64,000 nucleotides of DNA, taken from positions 450 to 64,449 of the forward strand of contig JADFYJ010000015.1 of assembly GCA_015233115.1 (NCBI GenBank), read 5' to 3'. Positions 2,182 to 35,561 of this stretch are shown piece by piece. Within the stretch, counting starts at the first letter, position 1; each line of letters begins with the position of its first letter. The position numbers and the translations under genes were made by a program. Source of the DNA: Candidatus Omnitrophota bacterium. Its GTDB lineage: Bacteria; Omnitrophota; Gorgyraeia; Zapsychrales; Zapsychraceae. Below the pieces are notes generated by a model. The model saw only the letters and a list, made by a program, of their open reading frames with translations, searched no databases and was not told the DNA's origin.

Positions 2182-2288
2182 AATAAAATTTAAAAAAACA
2201 ACTGGAACTTAAGTTAATAGAAAAAATAGTTTATTTTCAATCTAAGATTTTATAGTAATAGTAAGAGCTTTTCAATGTAAATAAAGTA

Positions 2289-3098
2289 CTACGAGGAAAT
2301 GATAGAAATTCCATGTTTATTGGCAAGTTTAATCGTTCGCTCTCTATCGATGATGATAGTTTTTCCGGATTCAATGGCTAAGCAGCAACATTTAGATTTT
2401 ATCATGTTCTGAACAGTGCGTGGGCCAATGACCGGCACGTCAAAACGGGAATCTTGTTTGGGTTTGCTCATTTTAACCACTACCGCCCCGCGGCGCGAAA
2501 TATGTCCTCCCCGCAAAATTGTTTTATCTGTTCCTTCCATGGCTTCGATGGCTACAATCGCTTTTTCTTTAACAACGACCGTCTGCCCCACATCCATACC
2601 GCCCATTTGTTTTGCCAAATCCCGGCCAAAACCTATATCCGTCAATTCAGTTTGTGTTGGACCCCGGCGGGTCAAAGTCCCTTTAGGCGCCAAATAATCT
2701 TTGATTAAAGCCGTGGAATCCATGAGCGTCATTCCGTATTCGCTTAATTTATTTCCTATAGCTGAAAAAATAGTATCTGCCTTACGATCCGTCATAGTTT
2801 GAAATAATTTTTGAATTTCTTCGTCATAAGGCACGGAAGGATTAAATAAATTCTTTTGGCTGACTTGGCCAGCCATGATGACTTGTCTCACCCCACGGGA
2901 ACGGAGGTATTCAAAACTTTTTTTGAGGTCGCTCGCCCAAAACATTTGCAATTCATTGACAAAAAAACGCAGAAAAAAAGATGTATCGCCTTTGATCCCC
3001 ATGGCTACGACATGATATCCCTGGCTTCGAGCCTGCTGAGCGAATAAAATAGGGAATTGACCGTTGCCGGCAATAAGGCCAAGAATTTTTTCAGACAT
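2289..3098 (-). CDS. lpxI: UDP-2,3-diacylglucosamine pyrophosphatase LpxI (DUF1009)
   Basis: 269 aa. ILGLIAGNGQFPILFAQQARSQGYHVV N-terminus typical of LpxI. Last gene of the lpx cluster. Confidence 0.7.
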   Translation of the reverse strand: MSEKILGLIAGNGQFPILFAQQARSQGYHVVAMGIKGDTSFFLRFFVNELQMFWASDLKKSFEYLRSRGVRQVIMAGQVSQKNLFNPSVPYDEEIQKLFQTMTDRKADTIFSAIGNKLSEYGMTLMDSTALIKDYLAPKGTLTRRGPTQTELTDIGFGRDLAKQMGGMDVGQTVVVKEKAIVAIEAMEGTDKTILRGGHISRRGAVVVKMSKPKQDSRFDVPVIGPRTVQNMIKSKCCCLAIESGKTIIIDRERTIKLANKHGISIISS

Positions 3099-3258
3099 AA
3101 ATTACAACAAAGTTTATTAATTCACACTATAATTTTTTATGTTGTTTGCATTCACTACGGGTATACGATCCATGCTCAAACAGGCCTGACGGCGAACTGC
3201 GCGCGGACATATACCCTCCGTTCACACAAACAACGCTTATCTCAATTAAATCATTTTT

Positions 3259-3290
3259 TTCTACTTTGTACTCTGTACTTTTTCTTACTC
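3259..3290. repeat. Oligo-repeat arm, family D (GTACTNTG octamer), at the lpxA 3' flank
   Basis: ctactttgtactctgtactttttcttactc. Same motif as the arm at 62456-62490. Overlaps the lpxA C-terminal codons. Confidence 0.5.
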
Positions 3291-4100
3291 TTCTCCAGCA
3301 TGAGCGCCGCTCAGCATGCCCCGCTTTGAAGTCTTGGCGAAAAAAACCAGATGCTGAAGTTCCGGAACCAATTTCAGTTCTCTCTCGATCTTTTCCAGCG
3401 CGGTTTTCTTAGCCAAACCCGAACGGAATAGGATTCTCACTGCTTGTTTGAGCAAAGTCAAAGTTTCCGAACTGATTCCCGCCCGTTTAAGGCCAACGGT
3501 ATTCAAGCCGATTACTTTGGCCGGATGTCCGTCGCATAAACAAAACGGCGGCAAATCCTGAGGCACTTTACTGCAGCCGCCTATCATACTTAACCGTCCT
3601 AAACGGGTAAATTGATGAACTGCCCCAAAACCCGCAATGACGACATTATCCTCAACAACCACATGTCCAGCTAAAGAAGCATTATTAGCCATGATGCAGT
3701 TATTTCCAATAATGCAATCATGCGCGATATGGCAATAGGCCATAATCCAATTATTATTTCCTAAAACAGTTTGAGACCCGCCATCAACAGTGCCGGGATT
3801 AATTGTCACATATTCACGGATCACATTATTGTCGCCAATGTTCAAAAAAACATTATCATCCGCTGAATGTTTTTTATCCTGAGGCGGACTGCCCACGACC
3901 GCGCCGGTATAAATTTTACAATTCATCCCTAACTTGGTTTGGCCGGTCACCACCACATGATTTCCAATAACGGTATGATCGCCAATAACCACATCCGGGC
4001 CAATGATCGCATACGGCCCGATCTTCACTCCGGGAGATATTTTAGCCTTAGGATCAACAATAGCTGTTTCGTGTATCGATATATTTTCCATTACCTTCAC
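3285..4100 (-). CDS. lpxA: Acyl-ACP--UDP-GlcNAc O-acyltransferase
   Basis: 271 aa. Hexapeptide-repeat left-handed beta-helix (IGPYAIIGPDVVIGDHTVIGNHVVV...). Position between lpxC/fabZ and lpxI. Confidence 0.9.
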   Translation of the reverse strand: MKVMENISIHETAIVDPKAKISPGVKIGPYAIIGPDVVIGDHTVIGNHVVVTGQTKLGMNCKIYTGAVVGSPPQDKKHSADDNVFLNIGDNNVIREYVTINPGTVDGGSQTVLGNNNWIMAYCHIAHDCIIGNNCIMANNASLAGHVVVEDNVVIAGFGAVHQFTRLGRLSMIGGCSKVPQDLPPFCLCDGHPAKVIGLNTVGLKRAGISSETLTLLKQAVRILFRSGLAKKTALEKIERELKLVPELQHLVFFAKTSKRGMLSGAHAGEE

Positions 4101-4133: not shown

Positions 4134-5447
4134 CTATTCCAATGCAAATTTCATTTCTGCTTCAACCGCCACATCTGGTCCGACCTTCCCCACTACCTTC
4201 GCCTGCGCAATACGGCTTTTCGCTTTGACGATTTCAATTTCCATAATTAATTGATCTCCCGGAACAACCATGCGGCGAAACTTAACCGCATCCACGGTTA
4301 AAAACAACGGGACTTTGCCTAAGTTTTCTTCCATGCTTAACAAACAAACTCCCACTGTCTGCGCCATAGCTTCCAGCATCAAAACACCAGGCATAACCGG
4401 TTTTCCCGGAAAATGACCGGTAAAAAATTGTTCATTCATGGAAACATTCTTGATGCCTACTGCTTTTTTTCCACGTTCTGTTTCTACCACCCTGTCAACC
4501 AACAAAAAAGGATATCGATGAGGAATAATTTTCATGATATCCTCAACACGAAATTCACGCTGGCCTTGAGCCGTAAAAACCGGTACAAAATTTTGAGCCT
4601 TAGATTTTTGATTTAACAACGCGATCTTTTGAACCAATTTAAAATTCAGGTCATGCCCGCTTTTTAAACCGACAAAATGCCCTTTGATGGGCTTCCCCAG
4701 CATAGAAAGATCTCCTAATAAATCCAGGGCCTTATGCCGGGCCGGTTCGTCGGGAAATCTCAGTTGATTATCCAAAACATGGTCATCCGAAAAAACCAGA
4801 GCGTTTTTGGTGCTAGCGCCTTTTGCTAATCCCTGCTCCCGTAAAAAAGCCACTTCCCGCTCCATGCAAAAAGTCCGCGCGCCTGCCAATTTTTCCGCGT
4901 AATTATTTTGATCCACCACCATCTCAAAAAATTGCGTCCCTAAAAGAGGATGGTCATAATCCAATGTATAAGAAATTTTTAATTCATCGCACGGAAAAGC
5001 GAAAATAGAACTATTTTTTCCATCAACGCCCACAGGTTCTAATATTTTAATATACGTCCGGTCCGCTTTCTGCTCCACCAGGCCGGCGGATTTGATCGCG
5101 TTCATAAATTCCAGACCGCTTCCGTCGAGAATGGGCGTCTCGGAAGCGTCAATTTCAACCGTGACATTATCCACGTTCAAGCCTGACAACGCGCTCATTA
5201 AATGTTCAATCGTGTAAACCACAGCAGGACCATTTTTAATGCCGGTACAGCGGTCATATTCTTCCCCTACTGTCACATTTTCCGGACAAATATTTATGGC
5301 TGGCCGTCCTGGAAGATCAGTACGAATAAATATAATCCCCTGATTATCCAAAGCAGGCTTTAAAACCATGTGCACCGGCTGACCTGTATGAACGCCAACC
5401 CCGGCAATTTTTATTTCCGACGCTATAGTTTGTTGTTTTTCAGACAT
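4134..5447 (-). CDS. lpxC-fabZ: Bifunctional UDP-3-O-acyl-GlcNAc deacetylase / 3-hydroxyacyl-ACP dehydratase (LpxC-FabZ fusion)
   Basis: 437 aa. N-terminal LpxC (IAGVGVHTGQPVHMVLKPA...IRTDL). C-terminal FabZ hot-dog (HRYPFLLVDRVVE...FFTGHFPGKPVMPGVLMLEAMAQ). Confidence 0.9.
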   Translation of the reverse strand: MSEKQQTIASEIKIAGVGVHTGQPVHMVLKPALDNQGIIFIRTDLPGRPAINICPENVTVGEEYDRCTGIKNGPAVVYTIEHLMSALSGLNVDNVTVEIDASETPILDGSGLEFMNAIKSAGLVEQKADRTYIKILEPVGVDGKNSSIFAFPCDELKISYTLDYDHPLLGTQFFEMVVDQNNYAEKLAGARTFCMEREVAFLREQGLAKGASTKNALVFSDDHVLDNQLRFPDEPARHKALDLLGDLSMLGKPIKGHFVGLKSGHDLNFKLVQKIALLNQKSKAQNFVPVFTAQGQREFRVEDIMKIIPHRYPFLLVDRVVETERGKKAVGIKNVSMNEQFFTGHFPGKPVMPGVLMLEAMAQTVGVCLLSMEENLGKVPLFLTVDAVKFRRMVVPGDQLIMEIEIVKAKSRIAQAKVVGKVGPDVAVEAEMKFALE

Positions 5448-22767: not shown

Positions 22768-22968
22768 ATGTCGAGAACTAATGTGGATTTAGATGACGGC
22801 CTTTTACATCATGCTTTAACGCTGACCCATTTACCCACCAAAAAAGCCGTGGTAAATTTAGCTTTGACCGAATTGGTCAAACGCCTCAAACGCCGCGATA
22901 TTATAAAGTTTATGGGTTCAGGCGCTTGGGAAGGAGATTTGCATCATTTAAGAGGAGCCAGAGTTTGA
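22768..22968 (+). CDS. vapB: Type II antitoxin, VapB family
   Basis: 66 aa. MSRTNVDLDDGLLHHALTLTHLPTKKAVVNLALTELVKRLKRR matches the VapB/DUF2191-type antitoxin pattern. Confidence 0.75.
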   Translation: MSRTNVDLDDGLLHHALTLTHLPTKKAVVNLALTELVKRLKRRDIIKFMGSGAWEGDLHHLRGARV

Positions 22969-23384
22969 TCTTAGTTGATACCTCTGTTTGGATTGATTTT
23001 ATTAATCATACTACTTCCGAATCTGCCCATATTTTACGTCGGCTGATTGAATCCGACGCAGAAATATGCCTGGCAGATATCCATTTAACCGAAATTTTGC
23101 AAGGTATCAAGCCAGAAAAAACTTTCATTGAACTAAAAAAATATCTATTGATGTTCCCGGTCTTGAGACCGCAAGGGATTGAGACCTATGTTTTTGCCGC
23201 CCAAATTTCTCGCCTATGCAGCCAAAAAGGAAACCCCATGGTTAAAACTGTTGATACGCTTATCGCGACTATTGCTATTGAAACAGGGGCAGAATTACTG
23301 CACAAGGATAAAGATTTTGATGTAATCGCGAAGCACTTGCCGCTGAAGATTTTTAAAGTCCCAACAACATCCGCAAATTCGTAA
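22965..23384 (+). CDS. vapC: Type II toxin, PIN-domain VapC
   Basis: TTG start, overlapping the vapB stop as TTGA. LILVDTSVWIDF with a conserved Asp. 139 aa. Its 3' end overlaps the 3' end of the convergent giant ORF by 32 nt. Confidence 0.75.
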   Translation: MILVDTSVWIDFINHTTSESAHILRRLIESDAEICLADIHLTEILQGIKPEKTFIELKKYLLMFPVLRPQGIETYVFAAQISRLCSQKGNPMVKTVDTLIATIAIETGAELLHKDKDFDVIAKHLPLKIFKVPTTSANS

Positions 23385-26300
23385 CCGGAACTACGTCGAT
23401 AATGACCGGCACAAAGCCGTTAATATTTTTCAATTGTTCGATCATAGCAGGATCTGTCTTAATCTCAAATCCCCGACCTTCCTGATCAACGTCCACCTTT
23501 AAATGAGCGGCATTTAAATCGATACCGCCGTCTTTGGGAGCAGGATTCGTTATTTGCGCTTGATCGCCTTTCGCCTTTTCAGAATGAGCAAAGTCTGACA
23601 TACGGAACTTTTCCGCCAGCCCATTTCGGTAGACCTGTAAAAGCTCTTCTATATTTTTTTTCAATTCTCTTTCCAACCGCAAAATTTCTTCCTCATAACT
23701 GAACTGTAATTCCCTAATCATTTCGGTTGCATAGAAAAACTCGTCAACCCATTTGTATATAATGTCTCTTTCCTTTTTTAAATCACCGATTTTTTGTTTA
23801 ATTTTTTTTTCCTTACTTTTAAATTTAGCAATTACAAAATCGTCAGCGAATAAATTTCTATTAGTAAGAACCTCCGCTTTTTCTAAATCAGAAAAGGGCG
23901 AATTTAGAATAGCTTCCACCATTTCCGGATTATTTAATATCAGATCACGGATATTCCCCACACTTGAATGGACAAACCCAATGGCTTGCCTCAATTTATT
24001 TAACGATTCCATGTTTTTACTCGTCCTCGTGAAATGAACAAATTTCTCAAGAAACCTTCTTCCGCCGGGGTCTTCTTTTAAAATTGATATCACATTTTGA
24101 AACACCACCCTATAAACTCCAGTATATTGTGATGGTTCTTCCGTTAATAAATCATCGTACCCCGCGATCAACCATACTCCTTCCCCAACAATTTTATCCT
24201 GCAATTCTTTTGTCACTATTTCTTGGGACACTCCCCTGGTAATAATGGTTTTACGATTTTCCACTAAGGATATAACCTGGCCCAGTTTTCCAAATGGCGA
24301 TAATCCTACGGCGCCTGCAGCGCCTCCTATTAATTTCAAAAATCCCCGGCGGGATTCGGAGTAAGCCTCTGGAATTTCGTTCTCTGTATCTTTTGCCTGA
24401 GACGTCATTTCCTGAATCATTAGAGCGATCAGCCCTTCGCGGCTATTCACTATATTGTTATTGTTCGCCAAGATTTTTCCATCTTGAATCATATGGATGA
24501 TTTCTTCCATGATTTGATCCCGCTGGGAATGCTGCAGGACGGAAGACTTTAAACTGTCAACAGCGACGGCGGTTAAAGAAAACGGCTCTTCAATGCCGCC
24601 AAATATTTTCATTTGAACGGCGTTCCATTTCATTCGCATACGGGTAACCAGATCCGGATTCAATATTTTCTCCCACGCCTGATCAGCTAGTTGCATTAAT
24701 AGCTGATGGGCGGGATTGTCCAGCATGGCCGCATCGTTTCGTCTGTGTGAGAGAGCTTGATCCTTTTGCTCCTTCCCCAAACGTAATATTTCCTTTTCAA
24801 TATCTCTAATTATATCTTCCGCTTGCACTATAAAACTCTCATCCCGCACGCGATCGTTTCCTATATTATGGGTTAATTTTTCATGGAAATCCATCATTTC
24901 ACTTAACCCAACTTCCAATTTTACCTGAATGAGAAACTCGAAAGCAGATCTTAAATGATGAAATACAATACGGCGGTCATGAAAAGACTGGAGTGTCAAA
25001 AAGCTAATTTTATTACAAATTGCATCTAGTGAATCGCGATCAACATGAATTATGTGCTTCATGGTGTGTGCGATATCATCGCGCTGTAACAAATTTGCTT
25101 TCTTAAATTTCTTAGTTATTTCCAGGACTGATTGCATTTGCTTTAAATCATTTTCCAACTGCAAAATTTCCCCACTATAAGCGTTAAGAACATCCTCAGT
25201 AGTTTTTGTTCTATAAAAAAATCTCTCGATCCATTTATAAAAAATTTCTCTTTCCGCATTTAATCCAACGATTTTTTGTTGTATTTTCACAATATTTTTT
25301 TCTAATTCCGGAATAGAATCTTCATTTTCCGGAGACTCAGTTTTAACATCAAACAAATCCAGCAATGTTTGTCTTTTTCCATCATTAGATATCGGCAAAT
25401 TCATGACAGAAGACAAAACCTCAGGCGGCGTATTTTCCATTTCTATGATAAATTGAAGAAGGATATTCCTTATGGGTTCCAATTTACCCAGTAAACCTTC
25501 TAAATATTCTATGGAATAATTTCCCAAAAAACTATTCAGATCATTTGTGGATAAAACGTCTGATATTTCTTCTGTATCCAGAGGTTGATTTGTTAATACC
25601 CTATATACAGCTGTTGGAATCCTCAATCTTACCTCGCCAACTAAAACAGGTTGCATTCCAGGCAGATTGTTCTTCCATAAAAAACTGCTATAACGTTGTT
25701 CCACTTGGGTGACCAGACTGTAAATTTTAAAATATAAATCTTGCTTTTTTTCTTGAGCTTGAAATAGCCCATCTACGACAACAGAAGACGGACCCCCAGC
25801 CATTTTCATAATACCAGTTAATTCTTTAGGCATCATCCGTGTACCAGCCGCTGCCACAGCGACAGTTTTCATAAATTCCCGGCGGGACATTCCCGCTTTT
25901 CCGTCCCGTTGATCTTTCCTGTCTTCTGTAACCATTAAATCAAGTAGACCGATTCCTCCATTCATAAACCCATTTTTCCCTGCCCCAATCTCTCCAGATA
26001 ATTTCATGCACTCGATTTCACGCCTCAATACATCTTTCAGTGGATGATTTTCAACGGCTTGGCGCATCTTTTCAGCGGCCATAGCTTTCATCGGTAAAGG
26101 CTGTTTCATATGATCAAACAACATCTTCAATCTTTTTAACCAGGAAGGATTCAATATTTCAGAAGAAATCTTCTCCGCCAGTTGCATTAATATTTGACGA
26201 TTCAGACTATTTTGTTCCAAAGCATACAATTGAGGATGTTCGGGATTATTCAACATTGCCGCGTCGTGATTTTTTCCGCTAACATTATGTGGCCATTTGT

Positions 26301-29300
26301 CAACGCGCGCCTTATTGAATAATCCTAAAATAAATTCAAGATTTTTAAGTTCTTTTTCCAACTGAAAAATCTTTTCATCGTAATTTAATACCCATTTAGT
26401 ATTAATTTCTGTTACGTAAAAAAATTCGTCTAACCATTTAAATATAATGTCTCTCTCTTTGTTTAACTTTGCAATGTTTTCTCGGGTTTCGCTGATCTTA
26501 CTTTTCAAATCTGTCATTGTTTTGGGCTCTAAAAATCCATTAGCATGACCATAATCTAAAAGGATTTTTTGTTTTTGATCTAGAGTAAAATCCGATAAAT
26601 CACGAAGAGTTGAGAACATAGAAGGGTTATTTTCGAGGACACGAAAAAAATTAGCCAAGATGTGATTGGCGGGTTCCAAATCCCCAACTGCTTTTTTTAA
26701 AAATATTGTTGATATTTCATCAGCATGCGGCCGACGGATAAACATTTCAATCACTTCTTTTGGTGTTAGATCTTTTACTGGACCAGCTAACATTTCCAAT
26801 ACAAGATCGTTCCTTTCAGTAGCACCGTAGATAACATTATACGTTTTGGTTATACCCTCCTGAACCAAGTCCACATGCTCTGTGATTTTGGTAAACAATC
26901 GCAAACGTAACAATTCTTGATCCGGCATGGCTACAGTAACCGGGCGCTCTGCCAACTTCATGGCATCTTTCAAACCCTCAGGCAAAAATCCCACCGACAT
27001 GGCGGCAGCAACGGATATTTTAAAAAATTCCCGCCGCTCTATACCCGACTCCAAATCTTCTTTGATCATAGAATCTATTAACCCGCTTCCACCGGTCAAA
27101 AGCGTTTCATTACCAGTTCCATTCTTTCTCATTTGCTTCATCCGCTCGATTTCCTGAATTAACACGTCTCTTTGAGGATGAATGTGAATTGTCTTGCGCA
27201 GATTAGCTGCCGCAAAAGATTCTATGCTAATGGGTTCTTTCAGATATGCAATCGCCCTGCGCAACCTGCCCATCCACCCAGGATTCAAGATTTGTTTCCA
27301 TTCCTGATCTGCCAGTTGCATTAATATTTCACGGGTGGAATTGTTTTGATCGCCTATGCTCAATTGAGAATTTTCCAGCATCGCCGCGTCTGACTTTTCA
27401 CCGCTTAGTTTCAATAGCCAATTCTCTGCGCGCGATTTGTTGAATGCGCCTAAAACAAATTTGAGTTGTTGTAAATTAAATTCTAATTGCAAGATTTCAT
27501 TGTCATAGCTCAGATACGCTTCCTCCGTCAAATTTAAGTAGAAAAATCCGTCCACCCATTTGTGTACAATCTCTCTTTCCTTCTTTAGCTCAATGATCTT
27601 TTGTTTGGTCTCAGTGATCATTGCTTCTATTTTAGGTATTGTTTTCGGTTGAAAATATTTGGTTTTTGCTGCATGCAAATCCATAAGCATTTGTTTTTTG
27701 TCTGTTTCTGAAAAGCTAGGAAGCTCCAATATGTCCCAAGCTGCCTCAAGGTTTTCGGCCATCGTAGAAATATAATCAGCAACAAGTTGAATTTTAAGAT
27801 TTCCTTCAGAAAGTAAGTGTTTATAGTAAGACAAATCACGCGGAAAATTTACGCGTTCATAATTGTTTGGCAATGTTATACTATCCATTTGCAGATGGGC
27901 AAACTGAGGAATAATGATCCCATCTGGATGAAAAGACGGATTAATATGAAAAACATGAAGTCTCAGCGCATTCATCCTTTCATCCAGCTGATGAACTAAT
28001 TGCCATTTTTTCCACCAAGTACTTGACGGGTATTGTGTATCGCCTTTATCCCCTACAGGAATAGAAATTGTTGCGTTCTCAACCATACTCATGACACTTT
28101 TAATGCCGATTGGCATAATACCCATAGCACTGGCCGTACCGCCGGCTAATTTTAAAAATCCACGACGAGACAATTCTATTAAATCCTGCTTTTTAAAGTC
28201 TTCCTGAACCATAAAATCCAACAAGCCTTTTCCGCCAGTTAATAGACGATTATTTCCTGTACCAATATCACCCATATGAATCATCAGCGCAATTTCCTGA
28301 ATTATCTCATCTTTTTGCGGATGTTCATTTATCGCCTGACGCAGTTGAGCAGCCGCAAAAGACTCCATGGTAATTGGTTCTTTTAAAAAAGCAATCGCCC
28401 TGCGCAGTTTGCCCATCCACCCCGGGTTCAATATTTGTTTCCATTCCTGATCCGCCAGCTGTATTAATATTTGACGGGCAGGATTATTTTGATCTACGGA
28501 AGTCAACTGAGAATTTTGCATCATGGCTAAATCAGGTTGTGAATCGCCGTTGTCAGCCGTCATATCTTTCCCGAATTTAAATTTTAAACTCTCCCAAAAA
28601 CTAATAAAATAAAAGACTTCAGGATCATATAATGACTTCTTAGTGATCATACTTGAAGCGCCGGCTTCAATACCACTTATTATAAACCGTAGATCATTGC
28701 CCCGAAGATCATCGCTGTTTTCCCAAATTTGCACCAAAAATCTTTGTTCGGGAGCTGATAATTGTTCTATTTTTTCCAATAAAGCTGTGGCTTGATATGA
28801 TATTTTGTTATTGAATCCCGAATGTGGATATAACGGAAGCTTCATTGGGGTTCCATCTTTGATTTTTTTTAAAAATTTCAGTATTTCCAGATTTTTCTCC
28901 GGAACCCGCAGGTCTGCAACAATCGTATTGACAAGCATCACGAGTTTCTGATCATTAAGCTCCTGGCCAGACAAAGATTCAATCCGTGACGAAACAGCAT
29001 TCATGACCCAAAACACCGGACCCTTTACATCACCCGGAATTCCCAGCATAAACCGATGTTTGCCTTTAAGATCATAAAATAGTACATAATATTTATAATT
29101 GGCCTCTTCCCGGCTGTTAAGAATTTTTCGTTGAAGGTCTTTATCGTCTTTTATATTTTGAAAAAGCGTCACAACTTCGGGGTCCATGCGGTCCAAGTTG
29201 TTTCTGATCTGGCGATTTCGCATCACATCGTCGATAATCTGGCGGGACTCATCAGAACAACGGAAATACATAAAAGCGGTTTTATTACGGACACCTTCCT

Positions 29301-32300
29301 GAGCATCAACTTTCCTTTGTCCTGAAAGAGTTTGCTGTAAAACAAGCTCAAAGCCCTCATCTTCAAAATAACTGATTGCATCCGCGTCACGAACCATGTC
29401 AATATCTTCTTGTCCCCCCGCTTCATGATTCACAATAACCCGGTAAACCCGGCTGATAAGATTATCAGAGGCTCCGGCTTTTTTTAACAGTCCGACCGCT
29501 ATTTTTGCAGACACCATACTATGTGCTTTTTTATACTGATCGTAATAATGCTCTCCCAATGCTTTTTCATAATCTTTTTTGTTCACTTCAAAATGAGGAA
29601 ACGCGCGGTCTATGTCATGAAGCATTCCGGCTATACGCAAATACGCCGGTGCTTGTCTACCATAACGAAGTTGATAAATCTGCGCTGCGTAGTTGCCAGT
29701 GTTCAACAAATGCGGATCCAAACCTGGCAGGGGTTTGTCTCGATATTCGTTTTGGCGCAAATTTCTGATAATTTTTTGTAAAATTCCCGTTACTTTCTGA
29801 ACATAAATTTCTTCTTTGGAATCATATTCACCAAAAATATTTTCATTAGGTTTAACCCAAAATACAGGATTCAATCCGACTTCTACCAATAAACCAATGT
29901 TAGGGAATTTCTTCTGAACCATAGCGCTGTCCGTTGGTGTATTATTCATTAAATCATCAGAACCTCTATCATTCAAATCCGTTTTCATAGCCGCGTCGGC
30001 TAGAGAAGGCTGATATTTATCCAACGATGCTCCAAACGTAGCTTCACCAGCTTTAGGCGCATGATAAACTCGACCGGAAGGGCCTTGCCAAACAAAATAA
30101 TTTCCATTACTAAGTATTTGACTGGCTTGACGGCCAATTTTAAAAAACACCATTTTATATTTTGAATCTTCCTGTGAATTTGCTAAAAGCGCCGCGTCAT
30201 CATACTTAGCTCTGAGGTTGTTAATTGTTTCCCCGTTTTCACCGATGTGACTTTGCAACGCATGGGTTTCATCTTTTTGATGCAATAGATACAATGTTCT
30301 TAAAAAGAAGGATAAAAACAAATGTTCAGCATAATTTCTGTCATTTTTTTTAAACTTGCCATCGTTGTGAAAAAATACCGGATTTAAATATTTATCCAAA
30401 CTCGCTTCATACAAATCATGCACGTAAGGAGTCAGACTGCGAATATCTACTACGGCAGTTGAAACAGGAAGATCGCTGTGAATCTCAGGTGAAAAACGTT
30501 TGAAGGCTTCCGCAATAATGGAACCCGATTGATGCTCTTTTTGCTGATTCAAAAAATCCGCATACATTTGAAATATCACGTTTCCTTGCATTGCTTCATA
30601 AAAGTATGGATCAAGGCTTTTCAGTATTTCAAAGACGTCGTCCGCAGTCATGCGAGCATAAAATTTATTTTGGTTCACGGCCATGTCATAAAAAGGTTTC
30701 AACAAAACCACAGCAGGCAGAAAATCTTCATAAGTCTCAAGCCTGGGTTCAGGTTCACCCTGCCATTTTCCTGCATTAAATCCTTGATAATAAGTCAGCT
30801 TATTAAACCTCTCACCCTGAAGGCCCATGTCGCGTTCAAGAAGTTTGTATAACTTGATGCGGATTCGGTCATGCATCTTTAAAATTTCATTATCTTCTTC
30901 TTTTCCAAAGGTTAAAGCTGGCGTTTTCATCAAAACATTCATATACCAGCGGACAAAATAATTACGAATTCTTTGTGGCGCATCTACATACACATCGCTA
31001 TAGCGAACACCCCAATGATGGCCTAAATCAACATCCGATAAATCATAATTATCGTAAACTCCCGTATCAAGCAAATCCGCGGCGCCATTCGGGTCACCGT
31101 CGATAAAACCAGTTAAAATCCAGTCTAATAATTGAGAGTCATTTGTAGATATAGCCGTATTCAACAATAAGCGACAAAGTGCTCTTCTCTGTTGCATGTT
31201 CGATTGACGCGCCGGAGATTTGATGAATCCGTAAACTTTACGTTTTTCTTCAATATCACTCTTCGCCCAAATACTCATGACGTATATTTTTAAAAATTCT
31301 TGGGCTTCTTTCTCCGACAGTAAGCTTAAAGATTCCATGATCGTGCGTTCACAGTCCTTATTGCCTGCTTTCCGAGACAAAGCCCTCAACTCTTCCAGTT
31401 TATCTTCTCGATGCAATTCACCCACGAAAGAAATCCATAATTTTAAAATTTTTCCGTTTTTTTCGTTTTGATTAAATATATATTTTTCAACAAAAGAGTT
31501 AATTTTTACTCTTTGTTCTGATGTCAACGCGAACTCTCCTTCTAGTTTAAGCACGCTTAATAAATAATTGCCAATAGTATTGAGTTTTACTTCATTTAAT
31601 CCTGATGATTCCATAATGGTAATTTGTTTCCACACTTCCTCAAAAAATCGCGGATCCCCGACTTCTATAAAATATTTAAACGCCTCAACAAAATGAGGAG
31701 ATTTTTTGTCTAAAAATTTTAAAGCTGAAGGCTGGCCAACCGGACTCTGATAAGCAATCAGAATTGAAAAGATATTCTGTAGCGTTTGCGATTTAGAATC
31801 GTCCTGAAAGTCAATATTAATTAAATGTTTAACCAGCAAGTCAATGAGTTCATCTCTTCGATATTCTCGGCGCAAATCGTATTTATCTGAACCTTCTCTA
31901 TCCTGATGCGTCATAAATTCGTTAAAAAAATATGCCACATCCAAAGGCGTTGTTTTAAATAACTGGATAGCGGTATCAATATAATCGACGGTTAAGCGAG
32001 GATCTGTAGAATATTCTATGTAGATACCTTGGACACCAAACTGAAATAAATTCTGGGCTACACGAAAATTCTTTTCCTCTCTTATCATTTTCAAAAGTCT
32101 CTTCGCTATTTTATCGTTTTTGCAAAGTTCGCTAAAAATACCTGAAATTCTTAAAAGCAGCCTTTCATTATGAAATATCAAATTATCATCCGTATCTGCT
32201 AGACCGCAAATGTATCGAAGATTTTCAAAAAAGAATTCTATCGTTGGCTCATCATCTATTTTCCATAAAGAGTTTCTTTCAACTCCGAGATACTCCATGA

Positions 32301-34968
32301 TGTAATGATTCAGAATCAATTCCAAATGGGTAACATGATCTACGGTAAAGCGATTCAATGACTTCAAAAGGAACATCAAGTGATAATCTTCGTCAGAAGA
32401 CGCTGCGATAAAATTAATAAATAGAGATCCATAATGCGTACTGGAAGATTTTGAATAAGACCCTTCAGATAAAATACAATCCATGGCAATAGGCTTGATT
32501 TCTTTTATTCCGTTGTCGATGGCTAACGACAAAAGAAAATCAAACTCTTTGTTAAATTCAGTATGATATCCTCTCCCTATTGCATACATTTTACTCTGAT
32601 ATAAAGCGATGATACTGTCCATCACCCATTTTCTTACCTCTTTATCGTCCATGAGCAAACGAAATACTTGAAACATGGCCATGAATTTATCGCGTTCTCC
32701 ATCTTGAAAGTCGTAAAAAGTAACTTTTTCAAACATTTTTCTAAAGTAAGCAAAGATACGGTGTGCGATTTGCTGCTTTGTTTGGTTTGCTGATAAATTT
32801 ATTTTGGTTTTACCCTTAACTTGACCTGTACCTTTAATAAATGTAAAAGAAAATTTGCCGTCCTGGATTTGTGGGTCTTTTATGGTGTATGTCCGGACAT
32901 CCTCACTTCTATACTTTGTGTTTGCTAATGATTTAAAAGCTTCATTATATTCTTTTACCGTCGGCGCATTCATTGAACCGAAAGCATCAAAATACTCTTC
33001 GGGGTTGTCAATTTGTAGATTTGTTAACTTTTTATCCTGTTGAAACGGTGGGTATGAATATAAAATGTAATAATATTCTCCTTTATTAACCAATAAATCA
33101 TTCTGATGAAAAATTGATTTCATATCAAACATTGAGTCCGTAAAAGCTTGCTGATCTCTCTCCCGAATAATTATTTTTACCGCTTGGGGGTCAAAATTTT
33201 TCGGAGCTTTTTCCGAAATCGCAAAGCGCTTGAGCATCTCCCGAATGGTAATTTTTTCGCCTGAATTAACTATATCGTCAGTATTGATAAAAATATTGGT
33301 TGAATCTGAGTGGAATTCGTTGAGAAATTCCATTTTAGGATCTGTGTTGGCGATAAAACCCGAAAGATCTATCCAACCAACTTTTATAGCCTCTTGTTTT
33401 TCTATTTTACTTTGCTGTTCTATTATTTGTTGAGCTAATTTTATTCTTTGTGATTCATCGATGTTTTTTAAAGCGTCAAAAGTTTTAGGATCAATAAAAA
33501 CACGATCTTCATGACCGATAAAAATAAAATTTGTAAATTTATTTTTGAATAAAGCACCTGCGCTTTCATTTAATCCTTCTAAAAAATAAAGGCTCATACC
33601 TTCCTTTTTCAAATCTTCTTCCGGATCCAAAAATTGATACCGTTCATCACTCGGCTTGATTCTCATTTTTGAGGATCCCAATCCACCCATAAAATATTGA
33701 TCAATTAAAGAAACAACAGCTTGGTAGTTTGCATCCGCTGACAAAGTATCATTAGTACCAGATGAATTGCTCATCATCGCCGCGTCTGCCTGCAATTTCA
33801 CCTGAACCACAACCGCTTTATCCGTCGAGTCCATGGCAGCGTCGAGTTCGGGGTTGGCGCGATTTTCAACGGCCAGCCCGGCCTGATTGCCTGCCCAGCC
33901 GCCGGAAAAATATTTTCTGGAAACAATCTGCTGCGTTTGAGGGTTATATTCCTCTTTAATATAGTTGTAAACGCCTTTCTGGAATGCTTTTAAATACTGG
34001 TCGTAAATTTTTTGATTGGCGGCAGGATCTGCTGTTTCCAAACCTGCGGTTTTTTTCCGGTCAACAAATACCTGGCCTAATATGGATTTTTTCAAGGCTT
34101 GTTTGTACCACAAAGCTAATATCATGGAATTGTAAATCTGCCGAAGATTCGCGAAAATTTCGCCTTCGTTCACTTCTTTTTCGATTTCGGGGATGATGAT
34201 TTGACGTAAAAACTGCGCTTTTAAATCATCACCCATTTTCGATATTCCTTTTTTTATAACCCCCTCATGCTTAGAAAGCGAAACATAATCCTGCTCCAGC
34301 ATAACTTTCAAATGCGTGCTGACTATAAATGCTCCTTTAGAATGTTCATAAATTTTGGCGGTTTCTGGGATAATCCAGACTTTGTTGTAAGTGTCTAACG
34401 GGATATCTGTCGTATGTAATTCATTCTGCGCGCGTTCATAAATCTTCGACCAAAATTTTCTGCCTAATTCGTTTTCCGGATACATGAGCGACGCGGTGAG
34501 TTGTTTTAATAGGTAATCCTGAGCGAGAACATCACGACCCATTTCGGTTTTTCCAAAATTAACCGGGATCATACGGTCAGGCTCATTAGGAGATAAGTTC
34601 ACCCACATTTGGTCTTGCGGCACAGTTAGAGACGCGAGAAAATATTTTATTAGACGGGTGGATTCTTGTTTAAATTCTTCAGGATCCCTCTCCCTTCCCG
34701 ATGAGGGATTATTATCTGTTCCTTTATCGATAATAAAGTTAAATTTTAAGGGATCTTGCGGGTCAATGTTCACACCTTTGATGATGGCCGGGTGAAATGC
34801 CGGCGTAGGCATAAGCATAGTACTCGACACTGGGCCTTCGACTATACTCAGGGCATGTAACTGGGCATAGCCTGTCCCCGTAAACACAGTAGACATAATA
34901 AATGCCCAAGTAAGAAACGCGGCAATTACACGCTTTCCATAGCTGTTAAAAGTAAAAAATGAATTCAT
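23353..34968 (-). CDS. Giant secreted protein (3871 aa) with at least four C-terminal tandem repeat modules
   Basis: 11.6 kb uninterrupted ORF. N-terminal Sec signal KRVIAAFLTWAFIMSTVFTGTGYA. At least four tandem ~370-500 aa modules (DAAMLxN...QLADQEWKQILNPGW...SRRGFLKLAGG...KERDIIYKWVDEFFY) with near-identical DNA blocks at ~24650, 26150, 27290 and 28420. HD-like segment LHDID...VNHE...VRDAD. Confidence 0.85.
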   Translation of the reverse strand: MNSFFTFNSYGKRVIAAFLTWAFIMSTVFTGTGYAQLHALSIVEGPVSSTMLMPTPAFHPAIIKGVNIDPQDPLKFNFIIDKGTDNNPSSGRERDPEEFKQESTRLIKYFLASLTVPQDQMWVNLSPNEPDRMIPVNFGKTEMGRDVLAQDYLLKQLTASLMYPENELGRKFWSKIYERAQNELHTTDIPLDTYNKVWIIPETAKIYEHSKGAFIVSTHLKVMLEQDYVSLSKHEGVIKKGISKMGDDLKAQFLRQIIIPEIEKEVNEGEIFANLRQIYNSMILALWYKQALKKSILGQVFVDRKKTAGLETADPAANQKIYDQYLKAFQKGVYNYIKEEYNPQTQQIVSRKYFSGGWAGNQAGLAVENRANPELDAAMDSTDKAVVVQVKLQADAAMMSNSSGTNDTLSADANYQAVVSLIDQYFMGGLGSSKMRIKPSDERYQFLDPEEDLKKEGMSLYFLEGLNESAGALFKNKFTNFIFIGHEDRVFIDPKTFDALKNIDESQRIKLAQQIIEQQSKIEKQEAIKVGWIDLSGFIANTDPKMEFLNEFHSDSTNIFINTDDIVNSGEKITIREMLKRFAISEKAPKNFDPQAVKIIIRERDQQAFTDSMFDMKSIFHQNDLLVNKGEYYYILYSYPPFQQDKKLTNLQIDNPEEYFDAFGSMNAPTVKEYNEAFKSLANTKYRSEDVRTYTIKDPQIQDGKFSFTFIKGTGQVKGKTKINLSANQTKQQIAHRIFAYFRKMFEKVTFYDFQDGERDKFMAMFQVFRLLMDDKEVRKWVMDSIIALYQSKMYAIGRGYHTEFNKEFDFLLSLAIDNGIKEIKPIAMDCILSEGSYSKSSSTHYGSLFINFIAASSDEDYHLMFLLKSLNRFTVDHVTHLELILNHYIMEYLGVERNSLWKIDDEPTIEFFFENLRYICGLADTDDNLIFHNERLLLRISGIFSELCKNDKIAKRLLKMIREEKNFRVAQNLFQFGVQGIYIEYSTDPRLTVDYIDTAIQLFKTTPLDVAYFFNEFMTHQDREGSDKYDLRREYRRDELIDLLVKHLINIDFQDDSKSQTLQNIFSILIAYQSPVGQPSALKFLDKKSPHFVEAFKYFIEVGDPRFFEEVWKQITIMESSGLNEVKLNTIGNYLLSVLKLEGEFALTSEQRVKINSFVEKYIFNQNEKNGKILKLWISFVGELHREDKLEELRALSRKAGNKDCERTIMESLSLLSEKEAQEFLKIYVMSIWAKSDIEEKRKVYGFIKSPARQSNMQQRRALCRLLLNTAISTNDSQLLDWILTGFIDGDPNGAADLLDTGVYDNYDLSDVDLGHHWGVRYSDVYVDAPQRIRNYFVRWYMNVLMKTPALTFGKEEDNEILKMHDRIRIKLYKLLERDMGLQGERFNKLTYYQGFNAGKWQGEPEPRLETYEDFLPAVVLLKPFYDMAVNQNKFYARMTADDVFEILKSLDPYFYEAMQGNVIFQMYADFLNQQKEHQSGSIIAEAFKRFSPEIHSDLPVSTAVVDIRSLTPYVHDLYEASLDKYLNPVFFHNDGKFKKNDRNYAEHLFLSFFLRTLYLLHQKDETHALQSHIGENGETINNLRAKYDDAALLANSQEDSKYKMVFFKIGRQASQILSNGNYFVWQGPSGRVYHAPKAGEATFGASLDKYQPSLADAAMKTDLNDRGSDDLMNNTPTDSAMVQKKFPNIGLLVEVGLNPVFWVKPNENIFGEYDSKEEIYVQKVTGILQKIIRNLRQNEYRDKPLPGLDPHLLNTGNYAAQIYQLRYGRQAPAYLRIAGMLHDIDRAFPHFEVNKKDYEKALGEHYYDQYKKAHSMVSAKIAVGLLKKAGASDNLISRVYRVIVNHEAGGQEDIDMVRDADAISYFEDEGFELVLQQTLSGQRKVDAQEGVRNKTAFMYFRCSDESRQIIDDVMRNRQIRNNLDRMDPEVVTLFQNIKDDKDLQRKILNSREEANYKYYVLFYDLKGKHRFMLGIPGDVKGPVFWVMNAVSSRIESLSGQELNDQKLVMLVNTIVADLRVPEKNLEILKFLKKIKDGTPMKLPLYPHSGFNNKISYQATALLEKIEQLSAPEQRFLVQIWENSDDLRGNDLRFIISGIEAGASSMITKKSLYDPEVFYFISFWESLKFKFGKDMTADNGDSQPDLAMMQNSQLTSVDQNNPARQILIQLADQEWKQILNPGWMGKLRRAIAFLKEPITMESFAAAQLRQAINEHPQKDEIIQEIALMIHMGDIGTGNNRLLTGGKGLLDFMVQEDFKKQDLIELSRRGFLKLAGGTASAMGIMPIGIKSVMSMVENATISIPVGDKGDTQYPSSTWWKKWQLVHQLDERMNALRLHVFHINPSFHPDGIIIPQFAHLQMDSITLPNNYERVNFPRDLSYYKHLLSEGNLKIQLVADYISTMAENLEAAWDILELPSFSETDKKQMLMDLHAAKTKYFQPKTIPKIEAMITETKQKIIELKKEREIVHKWVDGFFYLNLTEEAYLSYDNEILQLEFNLQQLKFVLGAFNKSRAENWLLKLSGEKSDAAMLENSQLSIGDQNNSTREILMQLADQEWKQILNPGWMGRLRRAIAYLKEPISIESFAAANLRKTIHIHPQRDVLIQEIERMKQMRKNGTGNETLLTGGSGLIDSMIKEDLESGIERREFFKISVAAAMSVGFLPEGLKDAMKLAERPVTVAMPDQELLRLRLFTKITEHVDLVQEGITKTYNVIYGATERNDLVLEMLAGPVKDLTPKEVIEMFIRRPHADEISTIFLKKAVGDLEPANHILANFFRVLENNPSMFSTLRDLSDFTLDQKQKILLDYGHANGFLEPKTMTDLKSKISETRENIAKLNKERDIIFKWLDEFFYVTEINTKWVLNYDEKIFQLEKELKNLEFILGLFNKARVDKWPHNVSGKNHDAAMLNNPEHPQLYALEQNSLNRQILMQLAEKISSEILNPSWLKRLKMLFDHMKQPLPMKAMAAEKMRQAVENHPLKDVLRREIECMKLSGEIGAGKNGFMNGGIGLLDLMVTEDRKDQRDGKAGMSRREFMKTVAVAAAGTRMMPKELTGIMKMAGGPSSVVVDGLFQAQEKKQDLYFKIYSLVTQVEQRYSSFLWKNNLPGMQPVLVGEVRLRIPTAVYRVLTNQPLDTEEISDVLSTNDLNSFLGNYSIEYLEGLLGKLEPIRNILLQFIIEMENTPPEVLSSVMNLPISNDGKRQTLLDLFDVKTESPENEDSIPELEKNIVKIQQKIVGLNAEREIFYKWIERFFYRTKTTEDVLNAYSGEILQLENDLKQMQSVLEITKKFKKANLLQRDDIAHTMKHIIHVDRDSLDAICNKISFLTLQSFHDRRIVFHHLRSAFEFLIQVKLEVGLSEMMDFHEKLTHNIGNDRVRDESFIVQAEDIIRDIEKEILRLGKEQKDQALSHRRNDAAMLDNPAHQLLMQLADQAWEKILNPDLVTRMRMKWNAVQMKIFGGIEEPFSLTAVAVDSLKSSVLQHSQRDQIMEEIIHMIQDGKILANNNNIVNSREGLIALMIQEMTSQAKDTENEIPEAYSESRRGFLKLIGGAAGAVGLSPFGKLGQVISLVENRKTIITRGVSQEIVTKELQDKIVGEGVWLIAGYDDLLTEEPSQYTGVYRVVFQNVISILKEDPGGRRFLEKFVHFTRTSKNMESLNKLRQAIGFVHSSVGNIRDLILNNPEMVEAILNSPFSDLEKAEVLTNRNLFADDFVIAKFKSKEKKIKQKIGDLKKERDIIYKWVDEFFYATEMIRELQFSYEEEILRLERELKKNIEELLQVYRNGLAEKFRMSDFAHSEKAKGDQAQITNPAPKDGGIDLNAAHLKVDVDQEGRGFEIKTDPAMIEQLKNINGFVPVIIDVVPVTNLRMLLGL
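23400..28650 (-). repeat. Intragenic tandem repeat region of the giant ORF (~1.1-1.5 kb period, at least 4 copies)
   Basis: Twin-arginine-like motif codons at ~24350 (SESRRGFLKLIGGAAGAVG), ~25875 (MSRREFMKTVAVAAAG), ~27040 (ERREFFKISVAAAMSVG) and ~28165 (LSRRGFLKLAGGTASAMG). DNA-level identity blocks, e.g. ccagttgcattaatatttgacg. Confidence 0.8.
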
Positions 34969-35064: not shown

Positions 35065-35352
35065 TTATTTGTGAAGGTAAGAGCGCGGATGTCGATGCTG
35101 GTGGGCTACGGCAGAAATAATTACAGAGTTGTCAATAATCCCATAAAGTATTAAATATGGGAATTTACGTAAAGGACATTTACGGGTATGTCTGGTTAAA
35201 AATTGGTGCCCCTCAGGATAAAGGCGTATGAAATCAATGGCTTCCAAAATTTCATTGCGAAAAAGAACACCCAAGCCGGTCAGTTGTTGTTCATAAAATT
35301 CAATGGTTTGATTCAATTCTTGTTGAGCGATAGGCAAGAAAATGACGTTCAT
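35065..35352 (-). CDS. Type II toxin, ParE/RelE family
   Basis: 95 aa. MNVIFLPIAQQELNQTIEFYE...ILEAIDFIRLYPEGHQ. 4-nt overlap with the upstream antitoxin gene. Confidence 0.7.
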   Translation of the reverse strand: MNVIFLPIAQQELNQTIEFYEQQLTGLGVLFRNEILEAIDFIRLYPEGHQFLTRHTRKCPLRKFPYLILYGIIDNSVIISAVAHQHRHPRSYLHK

Positions 35353-35561
35353 TTGGCTAGTTGTTTTTTAATGGTTTCAAAATTTATGCCTTTTAGTTTG
35401 CCATTTTTATACGCGGCAAGACGTTTATCTGACTCAACGCCCCACTCCCGTTCGATTTCCGGATCAGGTTTATCCAGACTTGCGAGGATATTGTCAACCA
35501 TACGCAGACGCTGAATAGGTGAAAGCTGCAGAATATTTTTTTCAATATTTTTTACTGTCAT
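35349..35561 (-). CDS. Putative addiction-module antitoxin (TIGR02574-like)
   Basis: 70 aa. LSPIQRLRMVDNILASLDKPDPEIEREW...LAAYKNGKLKGINFETIKKQL matches the addiction-module-component pattern. Confidence 0.65.
   Translation of the reverse strand: MTVKNIEKNILQLSPIQRLRMVDNILASLDKPDPEIEREWGVESDKRLAAYKNGKLKGINFETIKKQLAK

Follow-up and report, generated by a model that had tools for sequence, protein, structure and literature searches.

Segments resembling twin-arginine leaders inside the four tandem modules of a giant, bracketed Omnitrophota protein

What could signal-peptide-like segments do when they lie more than two thousand residues inside a protein that already carries an export signal at its N-terminus? 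The question is raised by a giant open reading frame (ORF) of an uncultured Omnitrophota bacterium, which lies in a 64,000-nucleotide (nt) stretch of contig JADFYJ010000015.1 (assembly GCA_015233115.1), the whole of which is called the window below. The ORF encodes 3,871 amino acids (aa) on the minus strand without interruption over 11.6 kb, as the initial annotation of this DNA had reported, and its product is identical to GenBank MBF0479490.1 (locus tag HQL26_08405), annotated as a hypothetical protein of a Candidatus Omnitrophica metagenome-assembled genome (MAG). It is an intact chromosomal gene and a member of a very large unannotated family. Giant modular proteins are already known from Omnitrophota; what is specific to this one is a set of orphan tandem units that keep, in mid-chain, a leader of the type used by the twin-arginine translocation (Tat) pathway. 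The modules and their leader-like segments are located as follows.

23353..34968, minus strand: whole ORF, 3,871 aa and the stop codon.
27391..28533, minus strand: module M1, aa 2146-2526, beginning with DLAM.
28099..28173, minus strand: leader-like segment of M1, LSRRGFLKLAGGTASAMGIMPIGIK; TIGR01409 18.8 bits, hydropathy 1.29.
26266..27390, minus strand: module M2, aa 2527-2901, beginning with DAAM.
26968..27039, minus strand: leader-like segment of M2, ERREFFKISVAAAMSVGFLPEGLK, the most degenerate of the four; no TIGR01409 match, hydropathy 1.31.
24736..26265, minus strand: module M3, aa 2902-3411, beginning with DAAM and extended by ~130 aa at its C-terminal end.
25816..25887, minus strand: leader-like segment of M3, (M)SRREFMKTVAVAAAGTRMMPKELT; TIGR01409 15.3 bits, PF10518 17.3 bits.
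23578..24735, minus strand: module M4, aa 3412-3797 (segment 3412-3871 in BLASTP), beginning with DAAM.
24283..24354, minus strand: leader-like segment of M4, SRRGFLKLIGGAAGAVGLSPFGKL; TIGR01409 18.5 bits.

The four modules, of 375-510 aa each, stand in tandem as the initial annotation had described, and each of the blocks it quoted (DAAMLxN, LMQLAD, ILNP, HPQKD and KERDIIYKWVDEFFY) can be found. About 120 aa into every module (at aa 2268, 2645, 3029 and 3540) there is a motif RRxF[LFM]K, which reads SRRGFLK, ERREFFK, SRREFMK and SRRGFLK in the order M1 to M4 and in which R, R, F and K never vary among the four aligned modules. Behind each RR motif come 13 uncharged, Ala/Gly-rich residues, a Pro, and then a Lys within six residues, and ahead of it lie a conserved helical pre-domain of ~107 aa and an invariant Met. 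The claim that each module holds a Tat-like motif is therefore sound with respect to RRxF[LFM]K and the Ala/Gly-rich stretch, with the reservation that the M2 motif is degenerate and matches no hidden Markov model (HMM).

The modules were scored separately, with cutoffs of 16.7 bits for TIGR01409 and 22.7 bits for Pfam TAT_signal (PF10518). For TIGR01409, M1 and M4 are above the cutoff, M3 is just below it and M2 gives no match, while Pfam TAT_signal gives 16.8-17.3 bits per module, under its cutoff, and 31 bits summed over the whole protein. In the PDB the module profile matches no sequences other than the Tat leaders of a hydrogenase small subunit and of NapA, both of them weakly (E 0.5-0.6). 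The Kyte-Doolittle hydropathy of the four h-regions is at most 1.31 over 19 residues, as compared with 1.68 for the hydrophobic stretch of the N-terminal signal (aa 14-32). The segments thus share with Tat signal peptides (TIGR01409/PF10518) the S/T-R-R-x-F-L-K motif, a short, weakly hydrophobic A/G-rich h-region that ends in Pro, and a basic residue after it. Unlike those peptides they lie mid-chain (aa 2268-3540), four in tandem, in a protein whose N-terminus already bears a Sec-type signal, and neither an AxA site nor a cofactor-type passenger can be recognised in the giant protein.

Four occurrences of RRxF[LMF]K are observed in the protein against 0.007 expected from its composition. The initial annotation had argued that four such motifs are very unlikely by chance; this is a miscount, since the modules are paralogous and the four motifs reflect one ancestral event followed by conservation. 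The conservation itself is substantial: among the 9-residue blocks of the module, the one with RR ranks 6th in conservation, at a pairwise identity of 0.57 versus a mean of 0.217.

How old the duplications are can be read from the DNA. Pairwise identity between the modules is 26-37% at the protein level (BLASTP E 2e-21 to 2e-81). Identity among the DNA copies is 60-82%, with a best value of 75% over 300 nt (M1 vs. M2), and the short conserved DNA blocks are 63-82% identical between modules. The near-identity over 80-180 bp that the initial annotation had described is not borne out by these values, and the recent duplication or gene conversion that it had deduced is contradicted by the divergence; recent gene conversion between modules can be ruled out on the same ground. 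Since the DNA copies are only 60-82% identical, the duplications must be regarded as old, and their pattern of divergence points to selection at the protein level.

It is also important to consider whether the modules occur elsewhere. A word-indexed search with M2 gave no homologue, and a four-module profile run against 1.84 billion cluster representatives returned the giant protein itself and three weak matches, two of which are coiled coils resembling nonribosomal peptide synthetases and are regarded as spurious, the third being P0123 (see below). Pattern scans of 185,579 species genomes (GTDB) and of JGI metagenomes yielded no module relative, so that the modules are known from one MAG only. 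In agreement with the initial annotation, the modules have no known domain: the ~250 aa that follow the leader have no Pfam, NCBIfam or PDB match. An AlphaFold2 (AF2) model of M1, built from the four-row alignment, is all-helical with a predicted local distance difference test score (pLDDT) of 48 and confirms only the long C-terminal helices, 299-330 and 337-378 of M1, which lie in the region of a conserved block whose pLDDT reaches 83. The modules are orphan, all-helical units of ~375 aa and four old tandem duplicates of one another. The positions of the conserved block are given below.

27538..27582, minus strand: conserved block KEREIVHKWVDGFFY of M1, followed by long helices.
26416-26460, minus strand: equivalent block of M2.
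25213-25257, minus strand: equivalent block of M3.
23731-23775, minus strand: equivalent block of M4.

M3 also carries an insertion after the coiled-coil block (~24736-25140, aa ~3277-3411), His/Arg-rich and helical ('HTMKHIIHVDRD...HDRRIVFHHLRSAFEF...'), for which no database match was found and which M1, M2 and M4 lack.

The modules stand in a chain whose two ends follow the layout of a family, namely a Sec-type signal, an N-domain of ~330 aa, variable cargo and a C-domain of ~60 aa. These ends are found at the following positions.

34861..34968, minus strand: Sec-type signal-like segment, aa 1-36, recognised by inspection (K12 R13, hydrophobic 14-32, 'GYA|Q').
33898..34860, minus strand: conserved N-domain, aa 37-357, with WVNLSP, TEMGRD and AQDYLLKQ, ending in YFSGG.
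23356..23577, minus strand: degenerate junction (GDQAQ) and C-terminal domain 'GGIDLN...GFVPVIIDVVPVTNLRMLLGL', aa 3798-3871.

The N-terminal Sec-type signal already noted in the initial annotation is predicted here as well. Its A35 and Q36 are almost invariant among 121 family members, AF2 predicts a helix at aa 9-30, and export of the giant chain is predicted from this signal alone. Residues 1-375 have 1,219 homologues at E <= 1e-3 in a word-indexed protein database (the best with E 7e-127 and 57% identity), nearly all from MAGs that bear the label Omnitrophota or Omnitrophica; the N-domain is not covered by any Pfam family. All invariant residues of the family N-domain are kept in the giant protein; they include Ser126 (in WVNLSP) and a number of Lys, Asp and Glu residues. 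Species genomes, when scanned, gave at least 589 confirmed loci, most of them in MAGs labelled Omnitrophota. A single MAG has as many as six, and the genes often stand in tandem; many of the loci listed bear the name 'uncultured Planctomycetales', which is a label only. For the family comparisons we used 110 ORFs that begin with the N-domain, taken from 80 loci and ranging from ~400 to >3,700 aa; at least seven ORFs with the same N-domain start in the 80 fetched loci exceed 3,680 aa. The AF2 model of the N-domain is confident and places a long beta-hairpin (197-224) amid long helices. A Foldseek search with it gave no significant neighbour among solved PDB structures; its top rows, themselves non-significant, are the alpha-pore-forming toxins NheA and SmhA, which likewise pair a helical bundle with a beta-tongue.

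At the other end, GGIDLN begins at aa 3814, 58 aa before the end of the protein. This C-domain is found in 71 of the 87 complete family ORFs, aligns in the giant protein with those 71 C-termini, and follows the consensus 'GGI[DN][LF]NP...GF.PVII.I.P..NLP.LLG' at 51-112 aa from the end. Because the C-domain stands at its end as in most of the family, the giant protein is a complete, bracketed member. In a limited search of the literature on Omnitrophota giant proteins and beyond, we found no mention of the N-domain, of the C-domain or 'GGIDLN', of D-x-A-M (see below), or of Tat motifs.

These observations bear on whether the locus is real. The source is a short-read MAG contig and the modules are found nowhere else, so that one could suspect mis-assembled modules, a mis-assembled ORF or a decaying gene. 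Against this, the frame runs for 11.6 kb with no stop, both family termini are intact and in frame, and the conservation between copies has a protein-level pattern. The copies differ by 18-40% in DNA, so that an assembler could neither have collapsed nor duplicated them. In view of this divergence we consider an artefact or pseudogene so unlikely as to be hardly credible.

With the ends of the chain defined, the question becomes how its interior is organised. The remaining parts of the giant protein are listed here.

33775..33843, minus strand: two junction motifs (DAAM 376 and DAAM 395), aa 376-398, directly behind the N-domain.
29998..33774, minus strand: cargo unit 1, aa 399-1657, a non-repetitive orphan of ~1,260 aa.
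29920..29997, minus strand: junction motifs DAAM 1658 and DSAM 1680, aa 1658-1683.
28534..29919, minus strand: cargo unit 2, aa 1684-2145, with a putative HD domain at aa ~1750-1965 (29074-29721; 'GMLHDID').

A junction motif, D-x-A-M-[LIV]-[ASGV], recurs in three settings: behind the N-domain, at the borders of cargo units with one another, and ahead of the C-domain. The giant protein has eight copies of D[ASL]AM (aa 376, 395, 1658, 1680, 2146, 2527, 2902 and 3412) where 0.11 would be expected, and the 110 family ORFs (173 thousand residues) have 156 copies of D.AM versus 20.2 in shuffled sequences (shuffle maximum 28). The residue behind D.AM is [LIV] in 63% and the next is [ASGV] in 73%; DxAILS, DxAVLS and DxAQLS occur as variants in the family. 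D.AM lies within 80 aa after YFSGG in 31 of 102 family ORFs and within 40 aa before GGID in 15 of 71. The DAAM block described in the initial annotation does open each module (as DLAM in M1), and it is not specific to the modules, being the junction motif of the whole family.

Could the Met of this motif mark a start of translation? The Ala codons of DAAM differ synonymously (GCT, GCC, GCG and GCA), and no Shine-Dalgarno-like sequence is found upstream of any of the eight junction Met codons. Taken together, these two facts indicate protein-level selection for the motif, and internal starts at the DAAM Met codons are ruled out. Of the two modules compared in this respect, M1 has one Shine-Dalgarno-like match ahead of its M108 codon, which M3 does not keep. 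A second idea, that the Met is the native start codon of captured genes, is ruled out by a relative, L016, in which the aldolase profile starts ~25 aa past the junction; the motif is thus a linker element and not the relic of a start.

The nature of the units between junctions is clearest in six multi-junction relatives whose content was checked with Pfam. None of the 12 Pfam family matches straddles a junction, each lying inside its own junction-delimited unit. L016 contains malate synthase (627-1281), isocitrate lyase (2114-3079) and a class I aldolase (3180-3590), the last spanning profile positions 42-328 of 349. L051 contains a 2-hydroxyacid dehydrogenase (two Pfam families) and OGFr_N, L026 a protein kinase and a methyltransferase (two Pfam families), L046 a protein kinase, and L012 AAA_16 and Sa_NUDIX (SMODS-associated NUDIX). 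Because no Pfam match is cut by a junction, we take the family units to be whole proteins joined by a short, motif-bearing linker. The L016 aldolase is a class I fructose-bisphosphate aldolase. Cytoplasm-type enzymes stand behind an export signal in this family. The enzyme-bearing ORFs are the following.

L016:9974-21082, plus strand: malate synthase, isocitrate lyase and aldolase units.
L051:9977-21148: dehydrogenase and OGFr_N.
L026:9962-21058: protein kinase and methyltransferase.
L046:9989-21070: protein kinase.
L012:9893-16864: AAA_16 and Sa_NUDIX.

In the giant protein itself, aa 1-2145 show no repeats in a segment-versus-segment BLASTP comparison, which agrees with the span that the initial annotation had called non-repetitive. 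Cargo unit 1 has no Pfam or PDB match and one distant homologue, P0126 (22% identity, E 5e-17), a hypothetical protein of 807 aa from Omnitrophota that lacks the family N-domain and has an N-terminal signal of its own; this likeness suggests that the unit is a captured, free-standing exported protein. Cargo unit 2 probably holds a phosphohydrolase domain of the HD superfamily, an assignment that is weak. It has an 'LHDID' motif and scores 23.1 bits against PF01966 (cutoff 22), with matches below cutoff to DUF4202 (26 bits, cutoff 35) and Cas3-HD (27.4 bits, cutoff 43) and no PDB sequence match for the HD region. The window also has a stand-alone HD_3 gene (58210-58845). It shows no similarity to the HD domain, which rules out the idea that the domain was copied from it. 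The initial annotation had suggested a surface or adhesion factor. This has no support: Pfam and NCBIfam searches gave no adhesin domains, and the cargo of the family is made up of cytoplasm-type enzymes.

Are leaders within the cargo peculiar to the four modules? In three relatives a Tat-type leader stands directly behind a junction: P0097 has 'NQAMKRVVSRRKFLKTASLGGAAALPA' (TIGR01409 21.5 bits) followed by hydrolase-like cargo, L053 has 'DRAMSSDMGRRQFLSKLG' / 'DRAMSSDMGRRQFLSKLGIAIAGVSAGVMLP', and L077 has 'DEAVLSRRDFLRDLGG...VPAFGQ' / 'DEAVLSRRDFLRDLGGLLVVSAAMVAGVPAFGQ'. P0068 has one at residue 408, just past the N-domain, and no D.AM motif was found there. Deeper in the cargo, the orthologous L013 and L014 have a Tat-type 'M/I-SRRxFLG' ('MSRRSFLGLAVVGLCSAC'). 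Signal-like segments of the Sec type (basic, then hydrophobic) occur within ~130 aa past the N-domain in ~18 of 102 family ORFs, as in L049 ('...LASVALRSPAYA|QD' / 'KKTFTRLFQGVVAGVVMLASVALRSPAYA|QD'). Unless it is cut, a single chain cannot topologically accommodate two signals with their N-terminus in (N-in). Hydrophobic segments of this kind stand at aa ~382 of L049, ~448 of L003, ~420 of L025, ~375 of L058 and ~424 of L072, and that of L049 repeats the family 'AYA|Q' cleavage-like site. In L013 and L014 a receiver domain of the response-regulator type (aa 591-665) is combined with an internal segment that is Tat-type and lipobox-like (aa 1379, 'SRRSFLGLAVVGLCSAC'), and the cargo has an internal duplication in which '...GGYEKGFVLLRERDP.TGE...' appears twice.

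L013:9974-15634 and L014:9974-15385: orthologous family members in two MAGs.
L081:193-1221, plus strand: P0123, on a 1.3 kb contig, with a Tat-type leader and helical repeats.

P0123 is a stand-alone protein of 342 aa with the N-terminal leader 'MTRRGFLGNILAAAASKG', beginning 'MKIRELISEAKGPEMTRRGFLGNILAAAASKGIDPTGL'. The part of the module to which it can be aligned runs from the RR motif on (E 6e-5 with hmmsearch; 95% probability and E 4e-8 with hhalign), and the distance of 14 residues between the invariant Met of M1 and SRR is similar to that between the start of P0123 and its RR. P0123 is the only candidate for a free-living relative of the module core. A canonical Tat substrate is also encoded in another Omnitrophota MAG, a molybdopterin oxidoreductase (L075) with an N-terminal TRREFLK, so that the pathway is in use in at least one other MAG of the phylum; its leader is the only ordinary N-terminal Tat leader in the 1.5 Mb of DNA fetched from family MAGs.

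With these observations in mind, we read the family members with internal leaders as in-frame captures of complete precursor genes. That the ancestral module captured a Tat-precursor-like protein in frame, leader included, is fairly well supported by the alignments, and we infer the following course. The captured precursor would have begun with an n-region at the invariant Met, continued through S-R-R-x-F-L-K into an A/G-rich h-region of 13 aa that is weak in hydrophobicity and closed by Pro, and gone on to a basic c-region; it would have sat behind the ~107-aa helical pre-domain. Tandem duplication may then have produced four copies, in all of which selection retained the leader. The fusion of a Tat-exported protein with its leader, one of the readings offered in the initial annotation, gains from the leaders behind family junctions, from P0123 and from the constraint on the RR block.

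What the retained leaders do now is less certain. The uncut chain has one N-terminal signal, no stop-transfer segment and four leaders that are all N-in. Given the same orientation of the four and the lack of return helices between them, they cannot all act in an uncut chain. Their conservation in all copies means either that the units are separated and the leaders work, or that the segment has a role other than export. We tentatively favour separation, at slightly under an even chance, because of the junction grammar, the whole-protein units and the leaders retained across the family. The chain would be separated at the D-x-A-M junctions, and in each freed unit the leader, a peptide of low hydrophobicity, would serve for Tat-type targeting or anchoring, with the pre-domain left on the cis side while the helical coiled-coil part of ~250 aa is moved across, or held at, the membrane.

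A number of results weigh against this. Cleavage at the junction is hypothetical, and Pfam and NCBIfam reveal no protease domain in the giant protein. Judging by the N-terminal Sec signal, the whole chain would be exported, and the leaders would then be on the wrong side for the producer's own Tat machinery. A released unit would have an unusually long pre-leader extension, the RR motif lying ~120 aa behind the junction; ERREFFK of M2 is degenerate and lacks an HMM match; and by inspection no AxA or small-x-small signal-peptidase site follows the h-regions. The modules show no cofactor motif or fold typical of Tat passengers (at an AF2 pLDDT of 48). No tat genes were found in the window, where TatC families are unmatched in the 41 ORFs of at least 150 aa. 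Across the family, strict Tat-like motifs are only weakly enriched (3 versus 0.84 in shuffles, whose maximum is 3), and the match of P0123 is marginal and carried mainly by the leader region.

Several of these points are just what would be expected if the RRxFLK motif and the A/G-rich segment came from, or merely resembled, a signal peptide and now served as a structural helix, hinge or protein-binding element in an uncut, Sec-exported chain with no involvement of Tat. The N-terminal Sec signal with no stop-transfer segment over aa 33-2271, the internal position of the motif, the missing AxA site, the degenerate M2 and the per-module Pfam TAT_signal scores below 22.7 all fit, and AF2 shows the segment as a helix (124-136), at low confidence. 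Such a relic would leave unexplained why RR, F, K, the short A/G-rich h-region, the terminal Pro and the following Lys are kept in four copies that are otherwise 26-37% identical, since a buried structural helix has no need of so exact a grammar, and why the same grammar arises independently after junctions in unrelated family cargo. We judge a relic leader, the strongest of the alternatives, to be somewhat unlikely on balance.

The hydropathy values speak more directly to a further possibility, an uncut multi-pass surface or coat protein in which the N-terminal signal and the four RR segments serve as transmembrane (TM) anchors. Published giant ORFs of Omnitrophota have many predicted TM helices (10.1101/2023.11.21.568195; PMC10066038; 10.64898/2026.06.07.730766), and some members of the present family contain strongly hydrophobic internal segments. 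The RR segments are nevertheless too short and too weakly hydrophobic for Sec insertion (at most 1.31 over 19 residues, 13 uncharged residues, Gly and Pro), and with positive charges on the N-terminal side of all four they would share one orientation, with no return helices between them. This makes a multi-pass arrangement improbable. A known case in which an internal RR motif does insert a helix is offered by the dual Sec/Tat membrane proteins, the actinobacterial Rieske, Sco3746 and polyferredoxin families (PMC5449189, PMC3471235). Like the modules, these have an internal RR motif, a low-hydrophobicity segment and positive charge on its C-terminal side (PMC5449189). In these families the Sec-inserted helices ahead of the RR are even in number, the single Tat-dependent helix comes last, and a cofactor-binding extracytoplasmic domain is present (PMC5449189), whereas the giant protein has one hydrophobic segment (aa 14-32) before its first RR, four RR segments without return helices and no cofactor domain.

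The placement of mostly cytoplasm-type enzymes behind a Sec signal, which is hard to explain in the periplasm of the producer, invites yet another reading, in which the units are effectors delivered into a bacterial host or prey and the leaders use the Tat translocon or membrane of the target cell. Omnitrophota have been proposed to be predatory or host-dependent (PMC10066038), and the bracketed, hypervariable design with many paralogues recalls polymorphic effector families. Delivery is purely inferential here, no secretion-system genes adjoin the giant gene in the window, and no toxin/immunity pair was found; in addition, the only predator of the phylum with an identified target attacks an archaeon (10.1101/2023.11.21.568195). 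For these reasons we consider the effector reading very improbable.

Polymorphic toxins are themselves a useful comparison: CdiA and Rhs proteins have the demarcation motifs 'VENN' and 'DPxGL', and the effector units of MARTX toxins are freed by inter-domain cleavage. The likeness is one of design only (conserved termini, swappable hypervariable cargo, many paralogues per genome and a short boundary motif). The giant protein differs from them in having no TPS, FHA, Rhs/YD, PAAR or CPD domain (Pfam/NCBIfam) and no adjacent immunity gene, and the family cargo includes central metabolic enzymes and not toxins.

As for the surroundings of the gene, the window is ordinary core chromosome of a diderm, with lpxA/C-fabZ/D/I, bamA, ompH, dnaB, prs, pth and L25 and, further, hisG, a SurA-like gene, two-component genes and greA. 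Genes of toxin-antitoxin type stand on both flanks of the giant gene.

22768-22968, plus strand: VapB-like gene, outside the giant protein.
22926-23384, plus strand: PIN/VapC gene, overlapping the 3' end of the giant gene by 32 nt.
35065-35352, minus strand: ParE-like toxin gene.
35349-35561, minus strand: small ORF upstream of the ParE-like gene.

The VapB-like/PIN pair converges on the 3' end of the giant gene, and the ParE-like gene with its small ORF lies 96 nt upstream of the start and may be co-transcribed with the giant gene. In the lpx/bamA/ompH cluster, one ORF (4134-5447, minus strand) combines LpxC and FabA/FabZ-like dehydratase domains. Bifunctional genes of this LpxC plus FabA/FabZ type occur in other phyla.

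Long and giant proteins are a recognised puzzle in Omnitrophota, as their predicted 'TM helices' imply implausible topologies and no cleavage points are known from which their processing could be studied (10.1101/2023.11.21.568195). The 'Archaeovorins' and Dockerin-type proteins have N-terminal regions without known domains, and proteolytic processing has been raised as a possibility for them (10.1101/2023.11.21.568195). Three Dockerin-type examples reach at least 30,000 aa, and the V. archaeovorus protein has 39,678 aa (10.1101/2023.11.21.568195; PMC10066038). For 'Ca. Velamenicoccus archaeovorus', peptides from its giant protein have been detected in the LiM enrichment culture. Their marks are SecA_DEAD, TPR, GT1 or dockerin domains and many TM helices (10.1101/2023.11.21.568195). 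The giant protein described here is like them in phylum, in the length of its ORF, in having few recognisable domains and in the stringing together of cytoplasm-type enzyme domains; it is unlike them in being ~10 times shorter, in having no SecA_DEAD, C39, S8, dockerin, TPR or GT1 domain, and in lacking strong internal TM helices.

A broader idea is that the bracketed Omnitrophota proteins, and possibly the giants of the phylum too, are true bacterial polyproteins with D-x-A-M-[LIV] as the processing site. We regard it as unlikely, and state it for what it would entail: the units, some of which would be entire precursors that bring along a Sec or Tat leader, would each be routed separately after cleavage, and the four modules would give four separately Tat-targeted or anchored paralogous proteins. 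Viral polyproteins likewise concatenate whole proteins in one ORF with a short recurring boundary motif; the giant gene differs in being cellular and chromosomal, with putative cleavage and no protease identified. To our knowledge such an 'operon in one ORF' strategy has so far been known essentially from viruses.

For the family, the giant gene is a tractable example of 3.9 thousand residues that exposes the grammar of head, tail, junction, whole-protein units and retained leader-like segments. If the junction is a processing site, it would supply concrete cleavage points for the whole class, and the odd 'TM helices' would be explained as retained leaders. If it is not, four conserved Tat-type leaders in a protein with a Sec signal would be a natural test of the Tat motif away from the N-terminus.

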